From an uncultured Gammaproteobacteria bacterium (GTDB lineage Bacteria > Patescibacteriota > Patescibacteriia > Magasanikbacterales > UBA922): a stretch of 33,608 nucleotides of DNA. Both the position numbers and the translations under genes were made by a program. Under the pieces are notes generated by a model. That model ran no database searches and was not told the DNA's origin. It saw nothing but the letters and a program-made list of their open reading frames with translations. Shown piece by piece: positions 2,249-29,978 of this stretch. The DNA is taken from assembly GCA_964496615.1 (NCBI GenBank), contig CAZCAB010000002.1, positions 1-33,608 on the forward strand, written 5' to 3'. Position 1 is the first letter of the stretch, and every line of letters begins with the position of its first letter.

Positions 2249-2320
2249 GGCCCGTTCGTCTAGTGGTTAGGACGCTGGGTTCTCATCCCAGTAACAGGGG
2301 TTCGATTCCCCTACGGGCTG
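2249..2320 (+). tRNA. tRNA-Glu (anticodon CUC), no encoded CCA
   Basis: Cloverleaf folded by hand. Acceptor GGCCCGT/ACGGGCT (G1-U72 wobble), D stem GTCT/AGGA... with GG loop, anticodon stem CTGGG/CCCAG, loop TTCTCAT, 4-nt variable loop, T arm AGGGG-TTCGATT-CCCCT, discriminator G. Confidence 0.85.
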
Positions 2321-2358
2321 CATGTGACCTCTCGTTTGTGAGGTCAATTAAAACCTGT

Positions 2359-3544: not shown

Positions 3545-3618
3545 GTCAGGGTAGCTCAGTTGGTAAGAGCGTAGGATTCATAACCCTAAGGTCGGGAGTT
3601 CGATTCTCCCCCCTGACA
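3545..3618 (+). tRNA. tRNA with anticodon CAU (elongator Met, or Ile2 if lysidine-modified), no encoded CCA
   Basis: Acceptor GTCAGGG/CCCTGAC, D arm GCTC-AGTTGGTAA-GAGC, anticodon loop TTCATAA, variable loop AGGTC, T arm GGGAG-TTCGATT-CTCCC. G1-C72 is paired and there is no GGG/CCC anticodon stem, which argues against an initiator. Confidence 0.85.
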
Positions 3619-3619
3619 C

Positions 3620-13405: not shown

Positions 13406-14518
13406 CTACTTAATATCATCAATTCCGATAGGATCAAATTTCTTTAAATCATGTATCACCTCTCTCCCAATGATACTATCATACTTTTCAGATGGTAGTC
13501 CATCTATATCAGCTTGTGGACGCATTGCATATATCATCTGCGGCTTGATACCTGTTCCTGTTGGTATATCCTGCCCTGCGACAAGCGACTTTCTAAAAAC
13601 TGGACGGAATGCCTGCTCTTCATCTTGTAATAGCTTCTCTTCTTGTGAGAGCGCCTTCTTGGCAAACGCTGATTCGAGCATTCTCTCTTTTTTTAAGGGA
13701 TTAGAAGCGAGTTCATCAAGACTACTTCTCAGTAACTTTAGCTCATTGGGTGTCATCGACACCTTATGGTCTGGCCCCCAGGCATCGCGAGACAATGTGA
13801 AGTGTTTCTCGACAACACTTGCGCCTGCAGCGTAGGCCACTAAAGCTGATTCTATCCCAAGGGAGTGATCAGAAAACCCTATCGGTATGCCTAATCGTTG
13901 TCTCAAAGTCTTAATTGTCCCAAGACGCAGATCCTCAGGTGGACATGGATATTGGGACACACAATGCAGTACCATCACCAGAGCATTTTTTTTCATCACG
14001 AATGATACCGCTTGCTCCACTTCCGCAAAAGTACTCATTCCTGAAGACAGGATGATGGGTTTTCCTGTATTTCGCAAGTAATCTAGAAGAACGAAATCAA
14101 GAATATCCGCTGAGCCAACTTTCCATACCGATATATCCAAGTCCTCAACACGCTGCGCTGCACCCCGACTCATTGGTGTCGTCATGAAGACTATTCCCAA
14201 ATCGTCACAATACGTTTTAAGCGGCCTCCAAAATGTATCCAGCGGTGTTGATATGGTATTACGCCGTACCCATTCGTATCGTTCAAGTCCCTGATAATGG
14301 GGAGAATCTACATCACGACCAAGTTGTTCATCCTCTACGTTGTGCGTTTGCCACTTGATTGCATCAGCTCCACCTGCCACAGCTTCGTCAACAATTTTTT
14401 TTGCAGTATTCAGATACTCCTCCACCGATTTTTGCTCAGCTGATTGAATAAAATTCTTACCTGCCTCTGCGATAAGAAAAGGTCCATCAATCATCTTTTG
14501 CCATACGTCACCTGTCAT
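13406..14518 (-). CDS. divergent NeuB-family (PEP-dependent nonulosonate synthase-like) protein with C-terminal SAF-like domain
   Basis: FLIAEAGKNF...ADAIKWQTH N-terminal region, HCVSQYP and GFSDHS metal-ligand contexts, VEKHFTL, and a C-terminal LVAGQDIPTGTGI SAF-like segment. The track start at 14542 is TTG, so the ATG at 14518 (with upstream GGTGA) is preferred. Confidence 0.68.
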   Translation of the reverse strand: MTGDVWQKMIDGPFLIAEAGKNFIQSAEQKSVEEYLNTAKKIVDEAVAGGADAIKWQTHNVEDEQLGRDVDSPHYQGLERYEWVRRNTISTPLDTFWRPLKTYCDDLGIVFMTTPMSRGAAQRVEDLDISVWKVGSADILDFVLLDYLRNTGKPIILSSGMSTFAEVEQAVSFVMKKNALVMVLHCVSQYPCPPEDLRLGTIKTLRQRLGIPIGFSDHSLGIESALVAYAAGASVVEKHFTLSRDAWGPDHKVSMTPNELKLLRSSLDELASNPLKKERMLESAFAKKALSQEEKLLQDEEQAFRPVFRKSLVAGQDIPTGTGIKPQMIYAMRPQADIDGLPSEKYDSIIGREVIHDLKKFDPIGIDDIK

Positions 14519-14529
14519 ATCAATCACCA

Positions 14530-15834
14530 CTACAAACTCCAATATTCCAGACCCTCTTGCTCCACTTCTTCTCTAGAGAAGATATTCTTTAAATCAGCAC
14601 AGAGCAATTTCCCCTCATTCATTAAACCTTTCAGTTCTTGAGCTGTAATCTTCTTGAACTCATCGTGGGCCACTGCGATGATAAGAACGTCTGCTTTTGG
14701 TAAATCATCTTTGTCAGACAACACTATTCCATACTCACGCTCAACCTCCGCTGGATCAGCAAGTGGGTCATAGACGACAGGCTGGACACCAAAATCAATT
14801 AATTCGTGGTACAACGAAGCCACCTTGGAATTTCGCACATCACGCACATTTTCCTTAAAAGTAACACCATAAATTAAGAATTGGGACGATTTTACATCTT
14901 TGCCCATGCGAACCATGGTCTTAATGATCTGACGAGCAACAAACTTATGCATGGTATTGTTTATTCCTCTGCCAGCTAATATGACCTCTGGTGTGTGTCC
15001 AACAGACTCCGCCTTATACGTCAGATAGTATGGATCAACACCAATGCAATGTCCGCCCACAAGACCAGGAGTAAATTTTAGAAAATTCCACTTAGTTCCC
15101 GCGGCCTCTAGTACGTCGTGCGTATTAATGTCCATTTTGTTAAACAAAATAGCAAGCTCATTCATCAAAGCAATGTTTAAATCACGCTGCGTGTTTTCGA
15201 TGACTTTTGCTGCCTCTGCAACTTTAATAGATGACGCACGAAATACGTTGGTGATTGTCCCGTACACTTGAGCAATTGCATGCGTCGTCTGATCATCCAT
15301 CCCAGCCACCACTTTTGTTACGCGATCAATAGTATGTTCAGCATCACCAGGATTAACCCGCTCAGGAGAATAGCCAACAAAAAAATCTTCGCCTGCAACT
15401 AAGCTGGATTCGCCTTCCAATGCAGGTATGCATTCTTCTTCGGTTGCACCTGGGTACACTGTTGATTCAAATACTACTATGGCACCTTTCGAAAGATGTT
15501 CTCCAACGAGAGCACTTGCGCGTCTGAGAATTGTTAAATCAGGTACATTTTTTTCATCAACGGGAGTTGGAACCGCTACGATGATAAATTTAGAACGAGT
15601 AATCACTGATGGATCGACACTAAAATTAATTCCGGAATTGCAAATCGTTTCAGAATCGAGCTCCCCGGTCCCGTCATGGCCCTGTTTCAACAGGTCGACC
15701 TTCTTCTCATCAATATCAAATCCAAAAACTGAAAAAGTTTTAGAAAGAAGTACTGCTAAAGGTAAACCTACGTAACCGAGACCGACCACACAAACATGCT
15801 CTCTCCTTTGTGTCAAATCCTCAAACAAACTCAT
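14530..15834 (-). CDS. UDP-N-acetyl-hexosamine 6-dehydrogenase (WbpO/TviB/CapL-like nucleotide-sugar dehydrogenase)
   Basis: VVGLGYVGLPLAV Rossmann motif and the GGHCIGVDPYYL catalytic Cys motif typical of this subfamily. The start at 15834 overlaps the ugd stop as ATGA. Confidence 0.8.
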   Translation of the reverse strand: MSLFEDLTQRREHVCVVGLGYVGLPLAVLLSKTFSVFGFDIDEKKVDLLKQGHDGTGELDSETICNSGINFSVDPSVITRSKFIIVAVPTPVDEKNVPDLTILRRASALVGEHLSKGAIVVFESTVYPGATEEECIPALEGESSLVAGEDFFVGYSPERVNPGDAEHTIDRVTKVVAGMDDQTTHAIAQVYGTITNVFRASSIKVAEAAKVIENTQRDLNIALMNELAILFNKMDINTHDVLEAAGTKWNFLKFTPGLVGGHCIGVDPYYLTYKAESVGHTPEVILAGRGINNTMHKFVARQIIKTMVRMGKDVKSSQFLIYGVTFKENVRDVRNSKVASLYHELIDFGVQPVVYDPLADPAEVEREYGIVLSDKDDLPKADVLIIAVAHDEFKKITAQELKGLMNEGKLLCADLKNIFSREEVEQEGLEYWSL

Positions 15835-17216
15835 ATTATTGGCTCGAGATATTGAGATCCAACGGCCACAATCGAACATCCCGCTTTACGCAAATCATCG
15901 TAGCGAGTAGTAAGCATGCGCCTCCCGTCCATAATGAGAGGTTTTGAACCTTGTGAAATCAACATATCACCAAGTGCTTTAAACTGCGGCCAATCCGTGG
16001 AGATGATAACGGCATCAGCGTTTTTTATGCTTGTTGCTTCATCCGTGCAAAATACAACTCTCTCAGAATCGGGCATTTGGCGCTTAAAATGTTCAGAGGC
16101 AGCGGGGTCAAACAAAGAAATACTTTTCACCCCTTTCTTAAGAAGAAATCTCACTATTTCGAAAGCTGGTGAATTACGCACATCATTCGTATTTTGTTTA
16201 AAAGAAAGCCCCAATACTGCAACCGTTTTATCTTCCCACAAAAAATTAGCTTCTGTCTCTGCTCTGCTCAAAAACAACTCGAGCTGCCGTTTATTCGCAA
16301 GATACACCTCGTTAACAAGCACTGCCTCTTTACCTGCCGTTTGAAGCTGATGCGAAAGTGAACGAGCGTCTTTTATAAGACAACTACCCCCCGCATACAA
16401 ACTATTGTAAAATCCCCAATTAGAGATCCTTTTGTCAGTCGTTATGATGCGCCTTAAATTCTCAAATTCTACTTCCGGGAATGTTTCTGAGACTCGCCCA
16501 ATGACATCAAAACATGCTGCTATCTTCATGAACAAATAGTAATTCGCCAAAAGCTTTCCTGCTTCAGCTTCTCTGGGAGTAACTTCAATGTACTGCACGG
16601 TGGATGAATCGTAAAAACGCTGGTAGATACGTCGAACCACTTCGAAATCCGTCTCCGATGTTGCTCCAACAACGACTCGATCTGGACGTACCGAACCTTC
16701 AATTGCTTTGCTCTCAACAAGAAACTCAGGATTGGATACTATGCCAAAATTTTTCGCACCACAATCCTCAAGGAGTTTCTGGACAATATCCACCATATCC
16801 ACTGGGACTGTGCTCTTATTGATGACGACTATGTATTTACTCTGGGAGCCGCCATTTCTCTCTTTCATCGCGTTTCCAAGTTGCTCAGCGGCCTTCCTGT
16901 AATACGATAAATCGGTTTCACCAGTTTCATCCACCTCTGGAGTTGGCACACACATAAAGACCGCATCGCAATTTTCAAGAAAACTCTTTACATCCGATAT
17001 ATCCGTAGTAAATCGAATACGAGAGCCATTGCGAACCAGCATATCACCGAGTCCCTCTTCAAAAATACATTCCTCTATCACATCTCGATTGCCAGATCCA
17101 AGCTTTCTCACCTTTTCTTCATCTATATCAAAAACAAGAGTGTTATGCCCTGAATCAGCTGATACAGCAGCAGAGCACGCACCCACAAATCCTCCTCCTA
17201 TGTATAGAATATTCAT
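15831..17216 (-). CDS. ugd: UDP-glucose 6-dehydrogenase family protein
   Basis: 461 aa with IGGGFVGACSAAV Rossmann motif, GGSCLIKD catalytic Cys motif and a C-terminal UDP-binding domain. Confidence 0.8.
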   Translation of the reverse strand: MNILYIGGGFVGACSAAVSADSGHNTLVFDIDEEKVRKLGSGNRDVIEECIFEEGLGDMLVRNGSRIRFTTDISDVKSFLENCDAVFMCVPTPEVDETGETDLSYYRKAAEQLGNAMKERNGGSQSKYIVVINKSTVPVDMVDIVQKLLEDCGAKNFGIVSNPEFLVESKAIEGSVRPDRVVVGATSETDFEVVRRIYQRFYDSSTVQYIEVTPREAEAGKLLANYYLFMKIAACFDVIGRVSETFPEVEFENLRRIITTDKRISNWGFYNSLYAGGSCLIKDARSLSHQLQTAGKEAVLVNEVYLANKRQLELFLSRAETEANFLWEDKTVAVLGLSFKQNTNDVRNSPAFEIVRFLLKKGVKSISLFDPAASEHFKRQMPDSERVVFCTDEATSIKNADAVIISTDWPQFKALGDMLISQGSKPLIMDGRRMLTTRYDDLRKAGCSIVAVGSQYLEPII

Positions 17217-17293: not shown

Positions 17294-17322
17294 TTGACAA
17301 CAAAGGAAAAAAATGCAATCAT
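17294..17322 (+). promoter_or_regulatory. candidate promoter of the GC-rich gene
   Basis: TTGACA (17294-17299), 17-nt spacer ending in TGC (extended -10 like), AATCAT (17317-17322). A GGAGGA Shine-Dalgarno at 17350-17355 precedes the ATG at 17360. Confidence 0.35.
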
Positions 17323-17359
17323 GTTCTTGTATCGATCCACACCTATCTTGGAGGAAGCC

Positions 17360-18697
17360 ATGCGTCGAGTCATGACGATCACCTTTTTTGTTGTCTCGAT
17401 GCCTGGATGCGTCGAGAAATTCGAGCCTGCTGGCCAGTCCCTTGATGAGAACTCGGGTGACGAAGGCGGGCAGGAAGGCGACGAGGGAAACGCAGAACCC
17501 GATCCTGACGAAGGCGGGCAGGAAGGCGACGAGGGAAACGCAGAACCCGATCCTGACCCCGATCCTGACGAAGGCGGGCAGGAAGGCGACGAGGGAGAAG
17601 GTGAAGGGGAGGGCGAGGATGACCGCGTGATCAACTGCGGTGACGACAGTCACTGTGTCGACATCACGAACATCTGTTCGTGCGATGACGACAACAGCAT
17701 CTATTGCGAGCGTAAGACCGGCACGTGCACCGCAGGTCGCTGCGACCTTGAGCCGGTGCTCGTCAGTGCTTGCCCGTTTGGTTGCGATCACGAGCTCAAT
17801 CAATGCCGCCCCGCACCGTGTCCCGAAGGTGACACTTGCTGCGAAGGTGATGAGGAAGAGCCCCCATGTAACGGATGTCCCGAAGGGACAATCGTGCCCG
17901 AAGGCACGGTCTGCGTACCAGGAGGTGAATTCCGAATGGGTAGCCCAGAGGACGAAAATGGTCGGGACGGTGCGAACGAACGCCAGATCGCAGTCGCCCT
18001 CACCAACGCCTTACTGGTCGCGCGTACAGAAATCACGCAGTTCGAGTGGGAGCTCGTGATGGACCATCGCCCATCGTCACGGGAAGACTGTGACAACTGC
18101 CCGGTCGAGCAAATCGCCTGGGCTGACGTGGTCGCCTACGCCAATAGCCTCTCGACTCAGGATGAGCTGAATCCCTGCTATCTGAACGAAGATGGTGAGG
18201 TCTACGGCTCGCAAGACGCCGAGAATCGTCGAGCAGTGGTGTGGCAAAATGGGTATGATTGCGAAGGGTGGAGGCTCCCAACGGAAGCTGAGTGGGAGTA
18301 TGCCACACGGGCAGGAACAACCACACCCTGGTGGTGCGGTGAGGATCCTGAATGCCTCGAGCAAACCGAATGGTACCTGCGAAATGCCCAGAACGGATCT
18401 CATGAAGTCTGCCTCAAAGAGGAAAACGCATGGGGCCTGTGCGACACCGTCGGCAACGTCATCGAGTGGGTCTGGAACTGGTATGGACCTCATCCGGACT
18501 TGGAGGAGACACTCATCAATCCGCGAGGACCAGAAGGTGACGGGAACAACCCGAAGGTGTTTAAGGGGTGCGGTTACGTACTCCCGGCGGAATCATGTCG
18601 TAGCGCGAGTCGCCTGTCAGGTCGACCGTTCGAGGAGATCGCCCCCCACGTCGGCGCACGTCTCGTGAGGAAGGCATCGCAGATCGGCAATCTGTAG
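17360..18697 (+). CDS. putative lipoprotein with acidic repeat linker, Cys-rich region and FGE/SUMF1 (formylglycine-generating enzyme family) domain
   Basis: Signal plus lipobox-like MRRVMTITFFVVSMPGC. A DEGGQEGDEGNAEPDP repeat linker and many Cys residues follow. FGE-sulfatase signatures GGEFRMGS, WRLPTEAEWEYATRAGTTTPW and GNVIEWVWNWY are present. G+C is far above the flanks. A strong SD supports the ATG at 17360. Confidence 0.85.
   Translation: MRRVMTITFFVVSMPGCVEKFEPAGQSLDENSGDEGGQEGDEGNAEPDPDEGGQEGDEGNAEPDPDPDPDEGGQEGDEGEGEGEGEDDRVINCGDDSHCVDITNICSCDDDNSIYCERKTGTCTAGRCDLEPVLVSACPFGCDHELNQCRPAPCPEGDTCCEGDEEEPPCNGCPEGTIVPEGTVCVPGGEFRMGSPEDENGRDGANERQIAVALTNALLVARTEITQFEWELVMDHRPSSREDCDNCPVEQIAWADVVAYANSLSTQDELNPCYLNEDGEVYGSQDAENRRAVVWQNGYDCEGWRLPTEAEWEYATRAGTTTPWWCGEDPECLEQTEWYLRNAQNGSHEVCLKEENAWGLCDTVGNVIEWVWNWYGPHPDLEETLINPRGPEGDGNNPKVFKGCGYVLPAESCRSASRLSGRPFEEIAPHVGARLVRKASQIGNL
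17459..17596 (+). repeat. in-frame 48-bp tandem repeat: two perfect copies, a 12-bp spacer, then a 30-bp partial third copy
   Basis: 17459-17506 and 17507-17554 are identical (gacgaaggcgggcaggaaggcgacgagggaaacgcagaacccgatcct). 17555-17566 is gaccccgatcct. 17567-17596 repeats the first 30 nt. Confidence 0.92.
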
Positions 18698-18797: not shown

Positions 18798-18821
18798 AAA
18801 AAATCTCTGTTGAGATTTTTT
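18798..18821. terminator. bidirectional hairpin terminator between convergent genes
   Basis: AAAAAATCTC-TGTT-GAGATTTTTT lies between the FGE-like gene (+) and the end of the long minus-strand operon, overlapping the HAD stop codon by 2 nt. Confidence 0.5.
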
Positions 18822-19488
18822 ATATTTGTCTAATATTACTTGAAACTTTCAAAAATAGGTCAGAAAGCGAATCGACTATTACTTCTCTTTCTGAAATGAC
18901 TCCAGGTTGCCATTTGTTAAACTGATTCGCAAGACCAAAAAAAGGAATATTGCAAGATTGCGCTGCAAGCATATCACTCTCACCATCACCGACCATGCAC
19001 GCCCGTTCCCTGTCATATCCGTTCTCTAAAAGAATCAGGTTAATGACGTCAGTTTTTTTTCTCGGACTCCCATAGCATCCCTTAAAGAAATTTCGTATCT
19101 CAAGTCCATCAATAGTTTCCTGCACTTGCTCTTCAGGCGTGCCCGTGATTATGTACAAATCAGCATCATGTGAAATTTCCTTGAGGAGCTCTTGGACGCC
19201 CGGGTTGAGACCCCTGCTAAGTATCTGCCGCTGAATACAATCGTTGTATGCTTTCGCATAGTGTTCAACCGTACGATCAATATCGTCTTTACCTACACCG
19301 CAAGCAGTAAATGTTCGCTCCAATATCTCATAGCGAGATTTTTCTCTATGAGTAAAGAGTACATCGTCCATTGCACGATGTAACCTCTCATCATCTGCAG
19401 GGAGAATGTCAAAAAATGCATCAAATTTGAGTTGATTAGAATCAACTATAATACCATCAAAGTCGAAGAAGACAGACCGAGAAGGCAT
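18820..19488 (-). CDS. HAD-superfamily phosphatase (subfamily IA-like)
   Basis: Motif I FFDFDGIIVDS, motif II IITGT, motif IV MVGDGESD. It is the last gene of the operon, 6 nt after the NeuB-cupin gene. Confidence 0.8.
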   Translation of the reverse strand: MPSRSVFFDFDGIIVDSNQLKFDAFFDILPADDERLHRAMDDVLFTHREKSRYEILERTFTACGVGKDDIDRTVEHYAKAYNDCIQRQILSRGLNPGVQELLKEISHDADLYIITGTPEEQVQETIDGLEIRNFFKGCYGSPRKKTDVINLILLENGYDRERACMVGDGESDMLAAQSCNIPFFGLANQFNKWQPGVISEREVIVDSLSDLFLKVSSNIRQI

Positions 19489-19494
19489 ACTGGA

Positions 19495-21030
19495 CTACTC
19501 AAATTGATACCTACCCCAGTTGACCAGCTTTGTCTTTCTATCCTCCCGTTTCATGTTATTAATTGAATGATCCTCATATATTGAATCATTATTGTAGTGA
19601 GTTGTTGACACCTCCTCAAAAACAACACCCGTCTCTGTTGAGAATCCATGACGAACACCTCTTTGAACAAGTAAAGTATCCCCTGGATACAAACGGCGGA
19701 CACGACCTTCAATGTCAACATCAAGCTCTCCCCACAAAATTTGAAATGACTCTTCTTTCTTCTTGTGGTGGTGAGATGGATTCCGTTGTCCAGCCATTTG
19801 AACAAGTATTTTCTTACAATACTCACGATTGATACACGTAATGATCGCAACACCAGCTTCGTGAAAATTCTCAAGTCCATAATGATGCGATAGCTCGAGA
19901 TCAAAATCATACCCTACATGAATTTTTGCGATGTTAAGCATTCCTCGAATCTCGTGAATAGAATGATAGATAATTTCTGCATTCGTCTTCTTAAGACCTT
20001 TGAGTGCATCACTACTCACAGGATCATTCTTCTTGTATGATCTATCAGCTATATGTCCTGTGCTCCACTCCCCACTCGTCAGTTGACCCTCCTGAAGTGG
20101 AATTGAAAAGAAAACATCTTCATCTTGAATGACTTCTCCTGCTTGGATATCCTTTTTTACATAAACACCACGAAGTAATGTCTTAAGAGATGCCATCTCG
20201 CTCTCTGCGGCCGCAGGCCTTATATCACTCCCACAGGATTCTTTCGCTTCTTTATACGCTCGTATCCACTGCTCGAGTTGTTGTGGTGTTGAAGAATATG
20301 CATTTAGATTGATCTCACTTGTCGCTACGCCAACATGTCTTTCAAAAAGCTTTGCACCCTTTGCACACGCTATCTGAACTGCTGACATGTTATCCGGATG
20401 TTCATGAGTTGAAAATCCGATCGGCACATGATGATACCGTGCACGCAAATTATCTATCTGATTGAGCTGAAGCTGATCATGAGGTGTCGGATATATAGCA
20501 ATGCAGTGCATGAGTGCAAACTGCACATCCTTATGATCTAAAAAGCTTACCAACTTATCAATATCCTTGATCGACAGACCTCCAGTTGAGACAATCATCG
20601 GCTTACCTGTGGCTGCCGCCTTTTCTAAAAGGGGCCAATCGCGAGCAGAACAACTCCCAATCTTCAATATTTCAACACCGAGTTTCACAAGTGTATCAAC
20701 TGAATCCTCATCAAATGGTGTACTCATGGTAACTAATCCACGCGCGCGCGTATGCTCGACCAAGGCCTTAAATTCATCTTCGCTTAGGCGAGTCGAAAGA
20801 AAACGTTGTACATGCTTGACATCGTCCCTTTCTCTAAAATCAGGATGGATAAATGTATCCAAATTTCGAAATTGCAACTTAACAGCAGCCTGAACCCCCA
20901 TGTTCTTTGTTACTCCTCCGTGCTCATCAATTATCCTCTTACCATGCTCAACACTACCCTGATGGTTGTTAGCCATCTCGAGTATAAACAGGTCAGAGAA
21001 AATTGAATTGTCCTTGTTCTGAATCGCCAT
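19495..21030 (-). CDS. NeuB-family synthase fused to SAF and C-terminal cupin domains (511 aa)
   Basis: N-terminal ILEMANNHQGS...VKLQFR, then CIAIYP, GFSTHE and FERHVG NeuB motifs. A SAF-like VYVKKDIQAGEVI segment follows. The C-terminal cupin motif 1 fits G-x5-HxH-x4-E-x6-G (GQRNPSHHHKKKEESFQILWG, G codon at 19789-19791), and motif 2 is approximated by PGDTLLVQRGVRH. Confidence 0.8.
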   Translation of the reverse strand: MAIQNKDNSIFSDLFILEMANNHQGSVEHGKRIIDEHGGVTKNMGVQAAVKLQFRNLDTFIHPDFRERDDVKHVQRFLSTRLSEDEFKALVEHTRARGLVTMSTPFDEDSVDTLVKLGVEILKIGSCSARDWPLLEKAAATGKPMIVSTGGLSIKDIDKLVSFLDHKDVQFALMHCIAIYPTPHDQLQLNQIDNLRARYHHVPIGFSTHEHPDNMSAVQIACAKGAKLFERHVGVATSEINLNAYSSTPQQLEQWIRAYKEAKESCGSDIRPAAAESEMASLKTLLRGVYVKKDIQAGEVIQDEDVFFSIPLQEGQLTSGEWSTGHIADRSYKKNDPVSSDALKGLKKTNAEIIYHSIHEIRGMLNIAKIHVGYDFDLELSHHYGLENFHEAGVAIITCINREYCKKILVQMAGQRNPSHHHKKKEESFQILWGELDVDIEGRVRRLYPGDTLLVQRGVRHGFSTETGVVFEEVSTTHYNNDSIYEDHSINNMKREDRKTKLVNWGRYQFE

Positions 21031-21077: not shown

Positions 21078-21815
21078 TCATTTAATCTTATGTTTCGTTA
21101 GGTATAGTTCGACAAGGTCAAAATCTATTGGCGTATCTATGTCGATACAATTTTCGCTCGGCATCTCAAAATATCCTATATCTTTACCAACCACCGTGTC
21201 AAATTGATCTATCGTCTTGGTGTATATCACATCAACAGCGCCATGCACATATGCTTTAGGCAATACTTGTCTTGGCATATCATACGGATGCTCAAAACCC
21301 GTAAATGATGGCGGAACTAATGATTCGATCCTTCCATCTTTTTCACTTTTTTTCCATGCTTTATACGGATGACTCGGGGCAGATGAAATAGATCTAACAC
21401 AATCGAGAATTGGGTCAGCAAGGAGTGTACAAATACCCTGATCAATATGTTCTGAAGTCCTCAACGGGAATGTGGGAGCCAATCGCAACACGACGTCGGG
21501 ATGATATTGCTGATTCTGATCAAGCCACGTGAGCGCGTGCTTTATGAACTCAATATCAGTTGAATCGTCCTGTGCTAGTTCTGCAGGCCGCAAGAAAGGT
21601 ACATCAGCGCCATGTTGCCTGGCTACATCCGCTATCTCTTCATCATCTGTCGTCACAATAATGCGATCGATATGCTCAGATTTTTTTGCTGCATCGATAG
21701 TCCATGCAATAAGTGGTTTTCCTGCTATTGGCAATATGTTTTTTCTAGGAACGCCTTTAGAGCCACCGCGTGCTGGTATAATCGCCAGCACTTCGACATT
21801 GCTTTGAACAACCAT
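21078..21815 (-). CDS. acylneuraminate (nonulosonate) cytidylyltransferase, NeuA-like paralog 1
   Basis: CTP_transf_3 signature IIPARGGSKGVPRKNI...GKPLIAWTI. The track start at 21824 is TTG, so the ATG at 21815 is preferred. Confidence 0.87.
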   Translation of the reverse strand: MVVQSNVEVLAIIPARGGSKGVPRKNILPIAGKPLIAWTIDAAKKSEHIDRIIVTTDDEEIADVARQHGADVPFLRPAELAQDDSTDIEFIKHALTWLDQNQQYHPDVVLRLAPTFPLRTSEHIDQGICTLLADPILDCVRSISSAPSHPYKAWKKSEKDGRIESLVPPSFTGFEHPYDMPRQVLPKAYVHGAVDVIYTKTIDQFDTVVGKDIGYFEMPSENCIDIDTPIDFDLVELYLTKHKIK

Positions 21816-21825
21816 ATACAACAAA

Positions 21826-22173
21826 TTATCTAATGATCACGTCAACTACTGTATAATCTTGAGTAACTACTGGAATCATATGAACAGCAGAATTCTGTAA
21901 AAGAATTTCCTCTGCATCTTTTTTGTATTCATCTCCAGAAACAGCTATTGGATTACGATTCACAATTGACTCAATAGGTGAAAAAACTGTCTGACCTCTT
22001 ACCAATGCTCGTCGAATATCCCCGTCCGCAGCAACACCGATAAGTTCTGCTTTTTCACCAACTACAATTACAGCACCTCTATGGTTATCACTCATTGCAA
22101 TCATGGCGTCTTTTATCGTCGCGTTGCTATAGACGATATAATTTTTGTCTATCAATTCTTGTATGGAAGCCAT
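21826..22173 (-). CDS. stand-alone CBS-domain pair protein
   Basis: 115 aa. ATIKDAMIAM...GAVIVV...LIGVAADGDIRRAL is a typical CBS pattern. It is packed between neuC and a NeuA-like gene with 1-3 nt gaps. Confidence 0.75.
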   Translation of the reverse strand: MASIQELIDKNYIVYSNATIKDAMIAMSDNHRGAVIVVGEKAELIGVAADGDIRRALVRGQTVFSPIESIVNRNPIAVSGDEYKKDAEEILLQNSAVHMIPVVTQDYTVVDVIIR

Positions 22174-22176
22174 ATA

Positions 22177-23328
22177 CTAATATGTTATTTTTTTGACCAG
22201 TAAATCTTCGTCTATAGAAATATTACCAAGCACATCAACAATCCGACGTGATGAATTTCCGTCACCATACGGATTCTTGCAATTCTTTAGCTTCTCTTTA
22301 AACGAAGGATCCAACGCTTTTTGTATGGCATCCTGAATTTCCTCTCGCACACAACCTACATTTATCACGTTTTCCCCTTGCACTCTGCCATTTTGTCTGT
22401 TACCAATATTAACAACTGGCAATCCAAAGGTTGGTGCTTCGATAAGACCACTAGACGAATTACCCACCAACAGATCAACAACATTCATCAGTCCTGCATA
22501 ATCTTCACGAGGGATGTTAGGGTAAATTTTCATGTTTGACTTCCTGTGTTCTTGTATCTTTCTACGCACTATCCCGCTTCCTGCGTCTGAATTATTCAAA
22601 ATGATTGTAACTGTCCCATCAAACGAACAGACTGCGGACATTACCTCATCCATGTGCGTGTCAAGATCGCCAATTTCCTCAGTCGTGGAGTGATACACAA
22701 ACAGCATGTTCAGGCCATCTGGTTGCAAGCTATATTTGCGAATAATTTCATCTTGTGGTGTCATTCTTCCATTCACCAGTTCATCAAGCATCGGAGCTCC
22801 AACATTGTGCACGCGGTGTTCTTGTTCACCCATTTTGAGTAAACGTTGCGCAGCATCATCGTTAGCCGCAAAATGAATATGTGCATACTTTGTAATAGCA
22901 TGACGTGTGGTCCCGTCTATATTTCCGGATACCTCACCGGCCTGAATATGCGCAACCGGTATATACATATGTGCGCCAGCCATCGCAGCCACCATCTGCT
23001 CTCCGCGATCTCCAGATATAAGTATGAAATCAGCTCCCATCTGATTAATAATTTCCGGAAGCTGTAGCATAAATACTGCCAGAGATTTAACCATGGTTAT
23101 GTGATTGTACCCATCAATAGTATTGTGAACGGTTGCAGCAATTTTAAAATTATCTTTCTTGATCTGCTCAATACTTGCCCCAAAGGACTCAAGCAAGTGC
23201 ATATTGGTGACAACTATGGCGTAATCCATGTCTTCCCTTTTTTCGATCTCTTCAATGATCGGCCTAAAATAACCGTATTCTCCGCGAGACCCAGCTATGA
23301 TTGCCACTTTTCTTTTCTTTACTTCCAT
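22177..23328 (-). CDS. neuC: UDP-N-acetylglucosamine 2-epimerase, hydrolysing type (NeuC-like) paralog 1
   Basis: HIQAGEVSGNIDGTTRHAITKYAHIHF matches the hydrolysing NeuC pattern (H-x-x-G-E/D...D...RH.I.K..H.HF). 383 aa. Confidence 0.83.
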   Translation of the reverse strand: MEVKKRKVAIIAGSRGEYGYFRPIIEEIEKREDMDYAIVVTNMHLLESFGASIEQIKKDNFKIAATVHNTIDGYNHITMVKSLAVFMLQLPEIINQMGADFILISGDRGEQMVAAMAGAHMYIPVAHIQAGEVSGNIDGTTRHAITKYAHIHFAANDDAAQRLLKMGEQEHRVHNVGAPMLDELVNGRMTPQDEIIRKYSLQPDGLNMLFVYHSTTEEIGDLDTHMDEVMSAVCSFDGTVTIILNNSDAGSGIVRRKIQEHRKSNMKIYPNIPREDYAGLMNVVDLLVGNSSSGLIEAPTFGLPVVNIGNRQNGRVQGENVINVGCVREEIQDAIQKALDPSFKEKLKNCKNPYGDGNSSRRIVDVLGNISIDEDLLVKKITY

Positions 23329-23333
23329 ACCAT

Positions 23334-24392
23334 CTATGATTCGACATCAGACCATTGAACAATGGTGCTCACTTGCATATCTTTACTCGCCTTTTTACCC
23401 AAAAAAGAGCCACTATATCTTTCATCCAAGTACTTTGCAGGTATTCCTGTTCCTGGCCGACGAGGCTCAACATTATCGAGTGTAAACTCATCCCCTTGAG
23501 TTATCTGCTTCGAAGTTACCACGCTATGATGGGCCCAATCCCGCACTGTTTGCTCCTCAGCACTTATTTCTTTTTTACAACCAAGCGAAGCCTCAATTTT
23601 TGATACTCCCTCGACTAAATCCACTAAATCTGCCGGCTCCAAGGAAATAAAGTGATCAGGTCCTGATTGATCGCGTGACAGTGTAAAATGCTTTTCCACA
23701 CAAGCTGCACCCAAAGCCGTTGCAGCATACGCCGTGAAATTATCGATCGTGTGATCGGACAGACCTACAGGCACATCAAAAGTGCTCTTCATTTTCTCTA
23801 TCATGCCAAGATTGATGTGGCTGTAATCTTTTGGAGGATACTCGGAAACGCAGTACATGAGTACAAGATGATCTTTAGCGCCTACCTCTTCATAGATACT
23901 GACTGTTTCTGCTATTTCTTCAAAAGTTGACATCCCAGTTGATACAATGATGGTTTTACCAGAACTCTTTGCAATAGTTGCTAATTTCCTATGCATCGGT
24001 AAATGTGTAAGCTCTCCGGATCCAACTTTGTATCCTGCCACACCAATGTCTTCCAACACATCAATCGCTGCGGGACAAAAAGGAGTACAAAGATATTGAA
24101 TGCCGACCTGCTCACAATAGTCTTTTATTTCTCTATGCATTTCAGGAGTGAACAAATTTTTCTTGAGAATATCATATAGTGGTCCATCCCACATCTGAAT
24201 TGACCCTGGCACCATTTCAACATCTGGAAGATGGAGCTGAAATTTGGCAACATGTGCGCCCGCTTTTTTAGCCTCATCCACCATTCGTTTTGCCGTCTGC
24301 ATGTCCCCATTATGAGAATCTGCTATCTCCACAATGATAGCTGTTGGTGCATCAGATCCTATTGATATATTTCCTAATTGACGAGTATGCAT
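23334..24392 (-). CDS. neuB: N-acylneuraminate (nonulosonate) synthase, canonical-length NeuB with SAF domain
   Basis: IIVEIADSHNGDMQTAKRMVDEAKKAGAHVAKFQ, YCVSEYP, GLSDHT and VEKHFTL motifs, plus C-terminal SAF (VVTSKQITQGDEF). Confidence 0.88.
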   Translation of the reverse strand: MHTRQLGNISIGSDAPTAIIVEIADSHNGDMQTAKRMVDEAKKAGAHVAKFQLHLPDVEMVPGSIQMWDGPLYDILKKNLFTPEMHREIKDYCEQVGIQYLCTPFCPAAIDVLEDIGVAGYKVGSGELTHLPMHRKLATIAKSSGKTIIVSTGMSTFEEIAETVSIYEEVGAKDHLVLMYCVSEYPPKDYSHINLGMIEKMKSTFDVPVGLSDHTIDNFTAYAATALGAACVEKHFTLSRDQSGPDHFISLEPADLVDLVEGVSKIEASLGCKKEISAEEQTVRDWAHHSVVTSKQITQGDEFTLDNVEPRRPGTGIPAKYLDERYSGSFLGKKASKDMQVSTIVQWSDVES

Positions 24393-24393
24393 A

Positions 24394-25113
24394 TTATTTT
24401 TTCTGAATGATTTCCTTCATTATAAGCTCTGCATAATCAAAATCTCTTTGCGTATCGATATCAAGGGCATACACACTATCCATCTCGTATCCATAGGTAT
24501 TCTCACCCCAGAGCGTCTTAGTACTATACATGCTACTAACTTTAAATGCATAAATTGCTGAATTGATATAGTATGATTCAGACACATCTTGATTTCTGTG
24601 TTTCATATCCTTCACCTGAGCCCCATCAATGACTCTCGTGAGCATATGCGATGTATCAATTTTCAACTGCTTGTATACACTGTATTTTGGATCAACAAGC
24701 GAGACACCAACAACAGAATCAATACCATCATGGTTTTGTATGATTTGTGCGACATCCTGAATGTGATTCACTTGTCTACCTGGGCATGAAGGCTCCAGAA
24801 GGACAACCCAATCAGGGTCATAATTATCATGCTCTTTAAGCCAAGTAACTGCGTGAAATATGGGATCAAAAGAAGATGATGTATCAGTCGCATATTCAGG
24901 TGGGCGCATGAACGGAACTTCGAGACCACAATCTAGACCAACTTGAGCAATCTGCTCATCGTCTGTTGAAAGTATGAATCGATCCAGCACGTTACTTTCT
25001 AGACCAACAGATGCTGTCCAAGCAAGAAGTGGTTTACCCAAAAACGACCTGATATTCTTTCCCGGCAGTCTTTTTGACCCTCCTCGTGCTGTTACGATTC
25101 CTAGGATATTCAT
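24394..25113 (-). CDS. neuA: acylneuraminate cytidylyltransferase, NeuA-like paralog 2
   Basis: IVTARGGSKRLPGKNI...GKPLLAWT. The track start at 25119 is TTG, so the ATG at 25113 (MNILGIV) is preferred. Confidence 0.85.
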   Translation of the reverse strand: MNILGIVTARGGSKRLPGKNIRSFLGKPLLAWTASVGLESNVLDRFILSTDDEQIAQVGLDCGLEVPFMRPPEYATDTSSSFDPIFHAVTWLKEHDNYDPDWVVLLEPSCPGRQVNHIQDVAQIIQNHDGIDSVVGVSLVDPKYSVYKQLKIDTSHMLTRVIDGAQVKDMKHRNQDVSESYYINSAIYAFKVSSMYSTKTLWGENTYGYEMDSVYALDIDTQRDFDYAELIMKEIIQKK

Positions 25114-25156
25114 GAACAATATGTCGATATATAATACAATAAAGTATCAAGAAGTG

Positions 25157-25309
25157 TCAACTAGTGCCATTTCTCTGATTTGCCTTATTGTAAACTATGT
25201 CAAACATTCGTTTTCCTGACTGCCCATCAATCATATAACAAAACTGTTCAATGAGTTTTTGTCTGTTCGCCTTGTCGACATTTGGATTATAAATATATGT
25301 ATCAATCGC
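25157..25309 (-). other. out-of-frame C-terminal continuation (50 codons plus stop) of the upstream GT-B-like gene
   Basis: Hand translation of the -1 frame gives AIDTYIYNPNVDKANRQKLIEQFCYMIDGQSGKRMFDIVYNKANQRNGTS*, a typical glycosyltransferase C-terminal helix region with no start codon of its own. It joins the 25302..26552 frame if the A8 tract loses one A. Confidence 0.6.
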
Positions 25310-27514: not shown

Positions 27515-28237
27515 CTAATTATTTTCATTACGCTTCAACAAAAAAGAAGCAAACTCAAAATCGATCGGCTCGTTTATATCCACTGATCGATCCTCTGGCA
27601 TAACATACGCACGAGAATCCGCCCCAAAAATATCACCTTCCATAACCAGATCAGTGCGAGTCAGATATATAGCACAGTTTCTTTTATATATAGGCTCTGC
27701 ATCCTGCCTCCGAGCTGATGCGGTACCTTCATTACTCACAGCAGATGTAATAACGCCATTTTCAATATATTTAAGTTTGGCCAGTGACATGTCAGTCAAC
27801 TCATACATACTCATCACCGAATCTGCGCCCGAATCCACAATCATTTCTATGCAAGCATCAATATCTTCACTTGTTCTCAATGGCGAAGTGGGCTGCAGAA
27901 CCATGACATAATCATATGAGATATCATCTAAATCAGCGAGTGATGTTACTGCATGCTGCATAAACTCTATTGCTGTGCTCCTATCCTGCGAAATTTCATC
28001 TGGCCTCATAAACGGAACTTCAGCTCCAGCCGCTCGCGATAATTCGGCTATTTGCACATCATCCGTGGAAACTATGCATCTGGTTAAGAAAGCGCTTTTT
28101 TGAGCGGCCTCTATCGTCCAATATATGAGAGGTTTACCAAGAAGCGGCCTAATATTTTTTTGGGCAATACCTTTAGAACCACCGCGAGCCGGGATGATAC
28201 CAAGGACCTTTTTGTTTTTGTACATTCCAGAATTCAT
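27515..28237 (-). CDS. acylneuraminate cytidylyltransferase, NeuA-like paralog 3
   Basis: IIPARGGSKGIAQKNI...GKPLIYWTI. The track ORF extends into the upstream gene, so the first ATG after that gene's stop (28237) is used. 28225 is an alternative. Confidence 0.85.
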   Translation of the reverse strand: MNSGMYKNKKVLGIIPARGGSKGIAQKNIRPLLGKPLIYWTIEAAQKSAFLTRCIVSTDDVQIAELSRAAGAEVPFMRPDEISQDRSTAIEFMQHAVTSLADLDDISYDYVMVLQPTSPLRTSEDIDACIEMIVDSGADSVMSMYELTDMSLAKLKYIENGVITSAVSNEGTASARRQDAEPIYKRNCAIYLTRTDLVMEGDIFGADSRAYVMPEDRSVDINEPIDFEFASFLLKRNENN

Positions 28238-28244
28238 ACTGCGA

Positions 28245-29978
28245 TTACAACTGGTATTTTGCTCCAATACCCAAGCCATCATAGTGAACATGGTCGATTG
28301 ATTGAAAATCAAAATCCACGAAAATAGCCCATCCATCAAATAGCAAGCTCGGTCGCGCAAGTGTCTTCACTAATGAATAAATTCCTAGATCATAAAAAGA
28401 ATGATGGTTATTAAGAACCACAACACAGTCTGCATTCATGAATCCATTTTCAACCGATGTTGGGGTCACATCAAGTGTCTGTAACTCTTCATCAGCGACA
28501 ACAGGATCATGGACATATATGTTCTTATATTCTTTTTGTATCTCCTGCATGATTTCAACTCCAGTGGACGATCGCAAATCAGAAGTTTCAGGTTGTCCCT
28601 TAAAGGCAAGTCCCATTATGAAGATTTTAGGGTCTGTCACACCTCGTTTATGAGTACGCAGAAAAGTAATTACTTTTTGGGCAACAAATGAAATCATGCT
28701 CTCATTTATATCACGACCAACGATCGGTAGCTTAGGTGTGTACGATATAGACTCGGATGATTTCATAAAGATGAAGGGATCCTTAGTAAGACATGCCCCG
28801 CCCACACCCGGGCTTGGTACTGGAATATTGTTTCGGGGATACCCCAAATTTGCGGCCTCAATAACCTCATACGTATTGAGTGAAAAGCCATCCATAACTT
28901 GTGATAATTCGTTGGAATATGCGAATGTTAAATCCCTGTACGTGTTATTCACGAGCTTTACAGCTTCTGCAGCCTCCAGCGTACTTACCATGCGGATCGA
29001 TCTCACAAATTCTTTAAAGAGATTAGCAGCTAAGTCTGAACTTGCTTTGTCATATCCACCAATTACTTGAGGAATGCTACGTATCTCTTGAAGCGCCACC
29101 CCTTCGGCTGTACGCTCCGGCGCAAATGCAACAAAGAAATCTCTGCCCGCTTTGTAATCGGTTTCTCTCTCAAGAATCGGAATAACAAAGTTTCGACATG
29201 TACCAATTGGTACTGTCGAACGCAAGACAATCAGATCATTTGGTTTGAGTATCTTTGAGATAACCTTTAGCGAGCTTTCCAAATATTGCATTTGGACTGT
29301 ATTTGTATCATCGACAGGAGTTCCAACACATATGATGTAAACATCACTTACACCCTCTTGAAATTCACTCGTAACAATAAATCTGTTATCAATATGGCGT
29401 TGCAGTAATTCATCAAGACCCTTTTCAAAAAAATGTGATTTTCCGGTGCGCAGCTGCGCAACCACGGACTCCTTAATATCAACGCCAATAACCTCAAAAC
29501 CGACTTCCGCCAAGGTGAGTGCAAGCGTGAGACCCACGTAACCTAATCCGATGACTCCAACACGGCGAGTTTTAACCTCACTCATCTTCCATAGCTCAAA
29601 AAAAGAGTACACATCAGTTGGTCTTCTTTGATCATCCACCAAGATCACTTTATCAATTGCATTGTATGGAATATTTCGTGCACGTATCTGTTCAAATACA
29701 CGTGGTAGCATGTTATGGACAGGCACATCGGATTCGATCGTGATTGGATCTGTTGTCATTATCTCGCCCACAGAAACATCGAGGTTAAATCCACTTAATA
29801 GTGCTCGACGAATATCGCCATCAGTAACAACACCTTCAAGTATGCTATTGCTATCAACAACAAGTACTATTCCGTGCAGCACCTCTGAATCACCGCCCAC
29901 ACCATGAGTTATCATACTCATGACTTCCTTTATTGTGGCATGTCGATTTGTTTGTAGATGATTGTTTCTGATCTTCAT
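28245..29978 (-). CDS. CBS-pair fused to a UDP-sugar 6-dehydrogenase (WecC/UDP-ManNAc dehydrogenase-like)
   Basis: N-terminal approx 130 aa carry CBS motifs (ATIKEVMSM...GIVLVVD...LEGVVTDGDIRRALL). These are followed by VGVIGLGYVGLTLALTLAE Rossmann and GVGGACLTKDP catalytic Cys motifs. Confidence 0.8.
   Translation of the reverse strand: MKIRNNHLQTNRHATIKEVMSMITHGVGGDSEVLHGIVLVVDSNSILEGVVTDGDIRRALLSGFNLDVSVGEIMTTDPITIESDVPVHNMLPRVFEQIRARNIPYNAIDKVILVDDQRRPTDVYSFFELWKMSEVKTRRVGVIGLGYVGLTLALTLAEVGFEVIGVDIKESVVAQLRTGKSHFFEKGLDELLQRHIDNRFIVTSEFQEGVSDVYIICVGTPVDDTNTVQMQYLESSLKVISKILKPNDLIVLRSTVPIGTCRNFVIPILERETDYKAGRDFFVAFAPERTAEGVALQEIRSIPQVIGGYDKASSDLAANLFKEFVRSIRMVSTLEAAEAVKLVNNTYRDLTFAYSNELSQVMDGFSLNTYEVIEAANLGYPRNNIPVPSPGVGGACLTKDPFIFMKSSESISYTPKLPIVGRDINESMISFVAQKVITFLRTHKRGVTDPKIFIMGLAFKGQPETSDLRSSTGVEIMQEIQKEYKNIYVHDPVVADEELQTLDVTPTSVENGFMNADCVVVLNNHHSFYDLGIYSLVKTLARPSLLFDGWAIFVDFDFQSIDHVHYDGLGIGAKYQL

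Follow-up and report, generated by a model that had tools for sequence, protein, structure and literature searches.

What might a nonulosonic-acid synthase make when its own C-terminus carries what appears to be a sugar isomerase? The question is raised by a contig of 33,608 nucleotides (CAZCAB010000002.1, assembly GCA_964496615.1), referred to in its full length as the window, from an uncultured bacterium that GTDB places in the Patescibacteriota (Magasanikbacterales, UBA922). Three consecutive genes on its minus strand are at issue. The first, at 21078-21824, encodes a NeuA-like cytidylyltransferase of the CTP_transf_3 family (248 amino acids). The second, at 19495-21030, starts with ATG and was delimited from the list of open reading frames (ORFs) and Pfam matches; its 511-residue product joins a NeuB-family synthase, a SAF domain and a cupin. 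The third, at 18820-19488, encodes a hydrolase of the HAD type (222 amino acids), and its ATG is separated from the TAG of the fusion gene by a spacer of 6 nt. An earlier, sequence-only reading of the locus had pointed to this arrangement, and both parts of it, the HAD gene 6 nt behind the synthase and a NeuA-like gene ahead of it, agree with the ORF list, the sequence and the Pfam scores (HAD_2, 65.3 bits; CTP_transf_3, 92.4 bits).

The explanation we favour, with a confidence slightly above even, is that the three genes form a self-contained, isomerase-coupled route to a nonulosonic acid that is activated with cytidine monophosphate (CMP) and free of nitrogen, a 5-hydroxy sugar of the type of 2-keto-3-deoxy-D-glycero-D-galacto-nononic acid (KDN). 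The module would probably make such a KDN-like sialic acid directly from glycolytic intermediates. Its parts come from known families and the logic of KDN synthesis is known; the fusion of NeuB with a cupin of the D-lyxose isomerase type is real, widely conserved and uncharacterised. The sequence-only reading had not recognised the three-domain architecture as a characterised one, and a search of the full-text literature likewise found no published characterisation of it, nor any paper that connects cupins or lyxose isomerases with nonulosonic-acid synthases, or Patescibacteria with nonulosonic acids.

The fusion protein and its partner enzymes

The cupin occupies residues 346-511 (19498-19995, minus strand). 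Its first motif (19729-19791, minus strand), which holds metal ligands and the catalytic lysine, runs G414...H420-x-H422-x2-K425-x-E427...G434; as a metal-binding pattern it reads G414-x5-H420-x-H422-x4-E427-x6-G434, exactly as had been quoted before, and the ligands are invariant. Pfam returns Cupin_2 at 34 bits (cut-off 27.2) and Lyx_isomer (PF07385) at 28.2 bits (cut-off 20.8), the latter spanning only positions 56-110 of a 222-position profile, and the NCBIfam equivalog for D-lyxose/D-mannose isomerases, NF051472, gives 18 bits and does not reach its cut-off of 350. A phmmer search with the C-terminal 181 residues aligned the Bacillus subtilis D-lyxose isomerase YdaE (2Y0O) over the whole domain, and a profile built from 16 family members recovered 2Y0O at 3e-13 and the Thermofilum D-lyxose isomerase 7NZO at 5e-9, both from end to end.

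An AlphaFold model of residues 345-511 has a predicted local distance difference test score (pLDDT) of 92. When it was compared with the PDB by Foldseek, ranks 1-10 were all taken by D-lyxose isomerases (2Y0O, 7NZO/P/Q and 3KMH/3MPB) with template modelling (TM) scores of 0.66-0.73; the best match, 2y0o, has a TM score of 0.72 and a root-mean-square deviation of 1.9 Å over 167 columns. L-ribose isomerases come after them in the ranking, and it is only the D-lyxose isomerases that match the whole domain, N-terminal helix included. A built-in isomerase of the phosphomannose isomerase (PMI) type had been suggested from the sequence, with PMI-, RmlC- and WxcM-type cupins named for comparison. The isomerase half of this suggestion stands, in that sequence and model alike predict an intact metal-binding sugar ketol isomerase; the PMI half gives way to the D-lyxose/D-mannose type. 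The archaeal cupin PMI 7zvm, at rank 12, matches just an 88-column barrel core, and none of the PMI, RmlC and WxcM families appears in Pfam or NCBIfam at E<=0.01.

The active site can be read against that of the Thermofilum enzyme, TsLI, whose contacts to mannose or fructose and Mn2+ are made by K62, H75, H77, K86, E88, H143, E156 and D163, with H75, H77, E88 and H143 forming the Mn site; activity is abolished by mutating the equivalents of K86, E156 and D163 (PMC8378251). In hidden Markov model (HMM) alignments K62, H75, H77, K86, E88, H143 and E156 correspond to K407, H420, H422, K425, E427, H461 and E473 of the cupin, and seven of the eight contacting residues thus have invariant counterparts. 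In 40 homologues of 54-61% identity the metal ligands (H420, H422, E427 and H461) do not vary, and neither do K407, K425 and E473; the catalytic residues so aligned, and not the metal ligands alone, stay unchanged in homologues of as little as 35% overall identity. TsLI is almost specific for D-lyxose, and it is R175 that restricts it to pentoses (PMC8378251). This residue aligns with N492, a variable position, such that the pentose-gating arginine is absent from the fused cupin. With seven of the eight contacts invariant and R175 unconserved, the cupin appears to have everything expected of an active aldose-ketose isomerase of lyxo/manno specificity, and we predict it to be a complete ketol-isomerase domain of the D-lyxose/D-mannose type.

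It shares with YdaE (2Y0O), TsLI (7NZO-Q) and Escherichia coli O157 Z5688 (3KMH/3MPB) the whole-domain fold (TM 0.70-0.73), the same metal site of three histidines and a glutamate, the catalytic lysine and glutamate, and the YCxK and KxE motifs. Those enzymes, however, are stand-alone and catabolic, whereas the cupin here is the C-terminal domain of a biosynthetic synthase, and identity to them is only 18-23%. The fused cupin also differs by the loss of six residues between its HxH and KxE motifs, by the extra invariant residues H382, H383, K406 and R457, and by a conserved basic C-terminal tail (R495, R498, K499 and R507).

In the synthase half, a NeuB-family TIM barrel of the phosphoenolpyruvate (PEP)-condensing kind (20221-21003, minus strand) takes up about residues 10-270, with Pfam NeuB (PF03102) covering residues 43-269 at 162.7 bits against a cut-off of 22.1. 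It is followed at about residues 280-345 by a SAF, or antifreeze-like, capping domain (19996-20193, minus strand). SAF scores slightly under its Pfam cut-off (19.1 vs 21) and is borne out structurally: Foldseek alignments to 3g8r, Neisseria meningitidis NeuB (NmNeuB) and PseI run through it. The model of the whole 511-residue protein has a pLDDT of 90, and the best PDB match of its synthase half is 3g8r (E=1e-92; 331 columns, TM 0.92), with NmNeuB and PseI next at about 25% identity. Scores fall far below the equivalog cut-offs for N-acetylneuraminic acid (Neu5Ac) synthase (TIGR03569, 163.7 bits vs 399.65) and pseudaminic acid synthase (TIGR03586, 148.8 bits vs 340.25).

A MAFFT alignment of NmNeuB, 3G8R, eleven members of the fusion family and the two other NeuB paralogues of the window (NeuB352 and NeuB378) shows which parts of the active site have been retained. 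All PEP- and metal-binding residues are kept, namely E18, K51, Q53, T104, K123, S126, S148, Y180, S207, H209 and H232, the counterparts of NmNeuB E25, K53, Q55, T110, K129, S132, S154, Y186, S213, H215 and H236. On the side of the pocket that faces the sugar, four residues differ: E134 of NmNeuB is replaced by S128, D214 by T208, D247 by N243 and R314 by I310. These replacements run through the clade, with S, T and N at the first three positions and a hydrophobic residue (I, F, V or M) at the fourth; the canonical paralogues NeuB352 and NeuB378 keep E134, D214, D247 and R314. In NmNeuB, Arg314 hydrogen-bonds the acetyl carbonyl of N-acetylmannosamine (ManNAc) and the beta2-alpha2 loop contacts the C6 hydroxyl of the same sugar; Arg314 is reported to be present without exception in the Neu5Ac synthases of bacteria and to be missing from the 9-phosphate synthases of mammals (PMC11339185). 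Its loss is expected of a substrate without a 2-acetamido group, and so agrees with a 2-hydroxy aldose supplied by a ketol isomerase. The synthase half belongs to a deep NeuB clade, that of 3g8r, whose members are uncharacterised and whose sugar pocket has been remodelled.

The closest solved relative is 3G8R itself, 'SpsE' of Chromobacterium violaceum (45% identity, TM 0.92), in which the same clade-specific replacements are found: S for E134, T for D214, N for D247 and F for R314. It differs in its length of 350 amino acids and in having no cupin domain. No function can be transferred from it, because it is a structural-genomics entry without known function or substrate; in the full-text literature it was found cited as a modelling template only. 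NmNeuB (1XUZ), a Neu5Ac synthase, has the same combination of TIM barrel and antifreeze-like domain and the same PEP- and metal-binding residues, but is only about 25% identical, and its ManNAc-specific R314, E134 and D247 are not conserved in the 511-residue protein.

The translation of the HAD gene contains motifs I-IV (FDFDG with D9 and D11, ITGT, K143/K144 and GDGESD). NCBIfam gives weak phosphoglycolate-phosphatase and HAD-IA matches and a 20-bit match to the NANP-related CTE7 family, and no match to the KdsC type (KdsC/YrbI, C0, 8KDO-phosphatase) was found in the same scan; the nearest PDB entries are 2ah5 and the TM_1254 sugar phosphatase. The protein is probably a C1-capped HAD-IA phosphatase of the generic COG0546 type, and because the type is merely generic it is uninformative as to where in a pathway the phosphatase step would fall. 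The 248-residue cytidylyltransferase scores 139 bits with TIGR03584 (PseF; cut-off 205.7). Its orthologues, at 50-57% identity, adjoin the fusion gene in most loci, and it is predicted to be the CMP-activating enzyme for the product of the synthase.

Conservation of the three-gene module

A protein search returned 120 full-length homologues of the fusion at 55-62% identity, mostly from metagenome-assembled genomes of Patescibacteria, which bear generic database names ('N-acetylneuraminate synthase family protein'). An exhaustive search of representatives (clustered at 50% identity) gave 330 clusters at E<=1e-30. Full-length fusions, down to 35% identity, make up over 100 of them, and a minority are cupin-less synthases of 335-370 amino acids. 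Scanning the species genomes of GTDB yielded 415 matching stretches, from which 80 loci were kept. The complete fusion is present in all 80, with 37 in Patescibacteria and 43 drawn from at least a dozen other lineages. Recurrence of the full-length architecture in 80 loci and more than 100 clusters places the fusion far beyond chance. Against a plasmid collection, tblastn found only ordinary PseI/NeuB homologues of less than 32% identity, none of them covering the cupin.

Downstream HAD genes were counted in the 75 loci with enough downstream sequence, and neighbours on both sides in the 57 loci with at least 3 kb on each flank. In 43 of the 75, a HAD gene on the same strand starts -49 to +266 nt from the stop codon of the synthase, most at about -49 to +70 nt, and in five further loci it lies in the same ORF, making 48 together. 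Co-occurrence of the NeuB-cupin fusion with HAD genes in other genomes, which the sequence-only reading had put forward as a check, is thus confirmed. Within 3 kb, a cytidylyltransferase is found in 51-52 of the 57 loci (about 90%) and a HAD gene in 36-40 (about 65-70%). In several cases the genes have themselves been joined: P0121 (723 amino acids) and L062 (760 amino acids) are NeuB-cupin-HAD proteins with the HAD domain at the C-terminus, P0072 (747 amino acids) is a CTP_transf_3-NeuB-cupin protein and P0102 a PF01467-NeuB-cupin protein. The genes for the synthase, the HAD protein and the NeuA-like enzyme are conserved together as a module, and all three are tied together by fusion proteins.

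The most constant neighbour of the module, within 3 kb in 50 of the 57 loci (about 88%), is a Gfo/Idh/MocA oxidoreductase of ~360 amino acids. It is a distant member of its family, the best PDB match being an inositol dehydrogenase at just 1e-4. Examples are found in L001, at 11.5-12.6 kb, and in L002, L004-L006, L013 and L014. When the gene was sought in the contig of the window it proved to be absent, the weak Rossmann-fold matches there falling inside a UDP-sugar dehydrogenase gene only. In several Patescibacteria loci a small PF01467 cytidylyltransferase-like protein or domain lies between the nonulosonic-acid cytidylyltransferase and the synthase or is fused to them (ORFs of ~156-188 amino acids in L004, L007, L008, L024 and L025; P0102; L012:97-3105); it is absent from the window.

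Six contexts of cupin-less synthases of the clade contained no separate cupin gene beside the synthase, and one of the six contained a HAD gene. Three contigs of T4-like phages (L086-L088; Logan SRR16915464/65/75) carry genes for a Gfo/Idh/MocA protein, for a CTP_transf_3 protein and for a cupin-less member of the synthase clade (42% identity). Genes for gp13, a neck protein, gp15 and terminase lie directly downstream of them, an arrangement suggestive of a ulosonic-acid pathway carried by phages. In the marine/TARA contigs L090-L092, a HAD_2 gene precedes the cupin-less synthase, which lies beside UbiA prenyltransferase, FAD_binding_4/ALO and SDR genes, a setting reminiscent of decaprenyl-phosphoryl-sugar epimerisation systems of the DprE1/DprE2 type.

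The predicted pathway and its alternatives

In the pathway we propose, the cupin, acting as a ketol isomerase dependent on Mn or another divalent metal, would turn a fructose-configured 2-ketose into the manno-configured aldose; the SAF-capped NeuB domain would condense this aldose with PEP; and the upstream cytidylyltransferase would activate the resulting ulosonic acid with cytidine triphosphate. The HAD protein would strip the phosphate by which the pathway is connected with central metabolism, a step for which two positions can be envisaged. A ketol isomerase can deliver only a 2-hydroxy aldose, so that the condensation product would have to carry a 5-hydroxyl and not a 5-acetamido group. 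The isomerase family prefers the lyxo/manno configuration, which is also that of the substrates of the NeuB family, and with a hexose the product would therefore be KDN. The sequence-only reading had likened the pairing of a synthase with a HAD phosphatase to the 9-phosphate routes of vertebrate Neu5Ac and Bacteroides KDN, and a KDN-like product is upheld here as the expected one.

In the order that we favour, the HAD phosphatase would convert fructose 6-phosphate (Fru-6-P) to fructose, the cupin would convert fructose to mannose, and the NeuB domain would add PEP to give KDN, which would then become CMP-KDN. This phosphatase-first order is slightly preferred to one that would run from Fru-6-P through mannose 6-phosphate (Man-6-P) and KDN 9-phosphate (KDN-9-P) to KDN, the order of the sequence-only reading. 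The D-lyxose isomerases related to the cupin, as far as they have been characterised, act on unphosphorylated sugars, and most bacterial NeuB-family enzymes take unphosphorylated aldoses as substrates. The acidic residues of the distal pocket, E473 and D482, are retained in the cupin, and the HAD protein, as a generic sugar phosphatase and not one of the KdsC/BT1713 type, was also counted in favour of this order.

The nearest precedent comes from the KL1 and KL2 capsule loci of Serratia marcescens, which contain only neuA and a neuB whose 747-residue product has an additional COG1082 isomerase/epimerase domain; in these strains KDN exceeds Neu5Ac by about 20:1 and neuB is required (PMC9000132). 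Here too a nonulosonic-acid synthase is fused to a sugar isomerase domain, a cytidylyltransferase is present and the module has no NeuC. The Serratia isomerase, however, is a TIM barrel resembling xylose isomerase and not a cupin, no HAD gene has been reported in the locus, and the Serratia NeuB is itself biochemically uncharacterised. Since the isomerase folds differ, the two fusions would be convergent, and the Serratia protein appears, by analogy, to be the best functional counterpart.

A second comparison is with the KDN-9-phosphate route, represented by BT1714/BT1713/BT1715, the Kdn-9-P synthetase of P. parvum and vertebrate NANS/NANP (PMC6200933), which likewise combines a synthase, a HAD phosphatase and a CMP-transferase and leads from glycolytic intermediates to CMP-KDN. 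The clustering of a NeuB-family synthase with HAD and CMP-transferase genes, as in BT1714/BT1713/BT1715, holds for the window and for other genomes. The synthases of that route differ in having no isomerase domain, their Man-6-P coming from a separate PMI, and the synthase of the window belongs to a different deep clade. BT1713 is a KdsC-type (C0) HAD protein, unlike the C1-capped HAD-IA protein of the window, where a phosphorylated substrate is only putative.

Several observations weigh against the proposed pathway, and those that concern the phosphate speak for a variant of it. The cupin might have been adapted to sugar phosphates, taking Fru-6-P to Man-6-P, with NeuB making KDN-9-P and the HAD protein acting as a KDN-9-P phosphatase. 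We regard this phosphorylated route as a tentative possibility, and its probability is counted inside that of the favoured explanation; the product is the same and the removal of phosphate is placed differently. All the characterised, dedicated KDN pathways (B. thetaiotaomicron, P. parvum and vertebrates) proceed by way of Man-6-P and KDN-9-P with the phosphatase last (PMC6200933). Compared with their canonical relatives, both domains have extra invariant basic residues, H382, H383, K406, R457, R495, R498 and K499 in the cupin, including its tail, and R55, H62, K72, H73 and R76 in the beta2-alpha2 loop of NeuB, the loop that contacts the C6 hydroxyl, and these could form a phosphate site. The counterpart of Arg314 is missing from the mammalian 9-phosphate synthases too (PMC11339185). 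The order of synthase then HAD, with gaps mostly of about -49 to +70 nt, and the C-terminal HAD domains of P0121 and L062 fit a late phosphatase; cupin-less synthases of the clade, such as those of T4-like phage contigs, could use ubiquitous Man-6-P; and a futile hydrolysis of Fru-6-P would be avoided. No characterised member of the D-lyxose isomerase family, however, is known to be active on phosphosugars, and the contacts to a neutral sugar, including E473 and D482, are retained. PMI structures match the barrel core only, the HAD protein is not of the KdsC/BT1713 type and has a mere 20-bit match to the NANP-related CTE7 family, and an adjacent HAD gene is missing in about 30% of loci. As a lead only, not counted as evidence, a human NANS sequence proved closer to NmNeuB than to the clade of the fusion.

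Other points bear on the active site of the cupin and on the product. TsLI D163 aligns with the variable N480, the invariant D482 lying two residues off, in an HMM alignment that is ambiguous without coordinates. Because the canonical substrate of the isomerase family is the pentose D-lyxose, an 8-carbon product is possible. Finally, the Gfo/Idh/MocA oxidoreductase, for all its constancy as a neighbour, plays no part in the scheme, and the window lacks it. One possible role is a modification of the product, such as an epimerisation by way of transient oxidation, in which case most family members would make something other than plain KDN and the window the unmodified sugar. That the module is a hitherto undescribed route, in which a deep NeuB clade fed by a D-lyxose-isomerase-type domain makes a new ulosonic acid and not plain KDN, seems to us rather unlikely; the acid might be an 8-carbon 3-deoxy-octulosonic acid from D-lyxose or, in the roughly 88% of genomes that also have the Gfo/Idh/MocA protein, an oxidised or epimerised derivative of KDN. 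If this were true, many Patescibacteria (the candidate phyla radiation) and some T4-like phages would have it as their main acidic sugar at the surface.

A change of chain length as such, whether from D-xylulose to D-lyxose (the ketose arising from xylulose 5-phosphate through the HAD protein) or from a heptulose, would give 8- or 10-carbon 3-deoxy-ulosonic acids, which are undescribed in nature. D-lyxose is indeed the best substrate of most characterised D-lyxose isomerases, TsLI being nearly specific for it (PMC8378251), and the synthase, with its altered sugar pocket, comes from an uncharacterised deep clade and scores far under the NCBIfam cut-offs for Neu5Ac and pseudaminic acid synthases. 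We nevertheless think it improbable: the pentose-restricting R175 of TsLI is not conserved and aligns with the variable N492, all known NeuB-family enzymes take 6-carbon aldoses, the adjacent cytidylyltransferase is of the nonulosonic-acid (CTP_transf_3/PseF-like) type, and the Serratia precedent yields KDN (PMC9000132). Little probability also attaches to a cupin that does not supply the substrate at all, but binds sugar in a regulatory capacity or acts on the product, by a KdgF-like ring opening or by epimerisation together with the Gfo/Idh/MocA protein; the aldose would then be made elsewhere and the HAD protein be an unrelated housekeeping enzyme. KdgF and other small cupins do match the barrel, some cupin-less synthases of the clade have only a cytidylyltransferase and/or an oxidoreductase nearby, and it is the oxidoreductase, rather than the HAD gene, that is the most constant neighbour. 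Yet D-lyxose isomerases alone match the whole domain with its N-terminal helix, the catalytic residues persist along with the metal ligands in homologues of as little as 35% overall identity, the cupin occurs in the window without the oxidoreductase, and the NeuB-cupin-HAD fusions point to a shared pathway. Such conservation makes a non-catalytic or product-modifying cupin unlikely.

If the isomerase-coupled route to KDN is correct, three small genes would suffice to turn two glycolytic intermediates, PEP and a ketose of the fructose type (free or phosphorylated), into a CMP-activated sugar resembling sialic acid, with need neither of amino-sugar metabolism nor of a separate mannose supply. 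The ability of Patescibacteria, with their reduced genomes, and of many other uncultured lineages to decorate their surfaces with nonulosonic acids would thereby be explained. The route would provide a sequence marker, NeuB joined to a D-lyxose-isomerase cupin and lacking Arg314, by which KDN-type products could be predicted in metagenomes and told apart from Neu5Ac, legionaminic or pseudaminic acid products. Beside the Serratia capsule enzyme, it would be a second, convergent example of a synthase fused to the isomerase that makes its substrate, and a one-enzyme route from fructose to KDN would be useful in biocatalysis.

The surrounding glycan locus

The three genes close a seven-gene block on the minus strand that extends from 25119 to 18820 with intergenic gaps of 1-47 nt throughout. 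It begins with genes for a 241-residue cytidylyltransferase, the 352-residue canonical NeuB, a 383-residue NeuC and a 115-residue stand-alone CBS pair, and continues with the 248-residue cytidylyltransferase, the 511-residue fusion and the 222-residue HAD hydrolase. The best promoter-like site of the region, scoring 11/12 in a consensus scan, lies just upstream of the block at 25131-25160 (minus strand). Directly after the stop codon of the HAD gene, at 18798-18819 (minus strand), the sequence can be read as an AT-rich hairpin, AAAATCTC-aaca-GAGATTTT, that leads into a T-run and is a possible operon terminator; the consensus scan did not flag it because its stem has only 2 G-C pairs. Rfam and tRNA scans gave no match within or near the fusion, HAD and cytidylyltransferase genes. 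Since a canonical NeuA-NeuB-NeuC set immediately precedes the module within a single operon, the organism probably produces two or more distinct nonulosonic acids.

The gene for the CBS pair (21826-22173, minus strand) ends 1 nt before that of the 248-residue cytidylyltransferase. Its product most closely resembles the CBS pair at the C-terminus of KpsF/GutQ arabinose-5-phosphate isomerases (E=4e-16); with homologues in just 2 of the 80 related loci, the gene lies outside the conserved module.

Beyond the block the window is rich in related genes. It contains three of the NeuB family (13406-14542, 19495-21030 and 23334-24392), three for CTP_transf_3 cytidylyltransferases of the nonulosonic-acid type (21078-21824, 24394-25119 and 27515-28360), two for NeuC-like hydrolysing epimerases (22177-23328 and 29999-31150) and three resembling UDP-glucose/ManNAc dehydrogenases (14530-15879, 15831-17216 and 28245-29978), a repertoire suggestive of several acidic-sugar pathways running in parallel within a single glycan locus. 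The last of the dehydrogenases (28245-29978, minus strand; 577 amino acids) has an N-terminal CBS domain, and its ORF overlaps that of the downstream cytidylyltransferase (27515-28360, minus strand) by 116 nt, so that one of the two start codons is probably mis-assigned. Further away, the window carries a tRNA-Glu(CTC) at 2249-2321 and a tRNA-Met(CAT) at 3545-3619, both on the plus strand; a 377-residue ORF at 2263-3396 with no Pfam match overlaps the former and is therefore probably no real gene, at least at its 5' end.

Next to the module, at 17294-18697, lies the sole plus-strand gene of the surrounding stretch, which encodes a protein with an FGE-sulfatase/SUMF1 domain. The N-terminus of this protein is acidic and of low complexity, and a perfect 48-nt tandem repeat is present in 2.1 copies at 17458-17557. 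The region has a GC content of 52.6%, compared with about 42% around it, and occupies the position usually held by the Gfo/Idh/MocA gene in most related loci; the SUMF1-domain gene may be an insertion.

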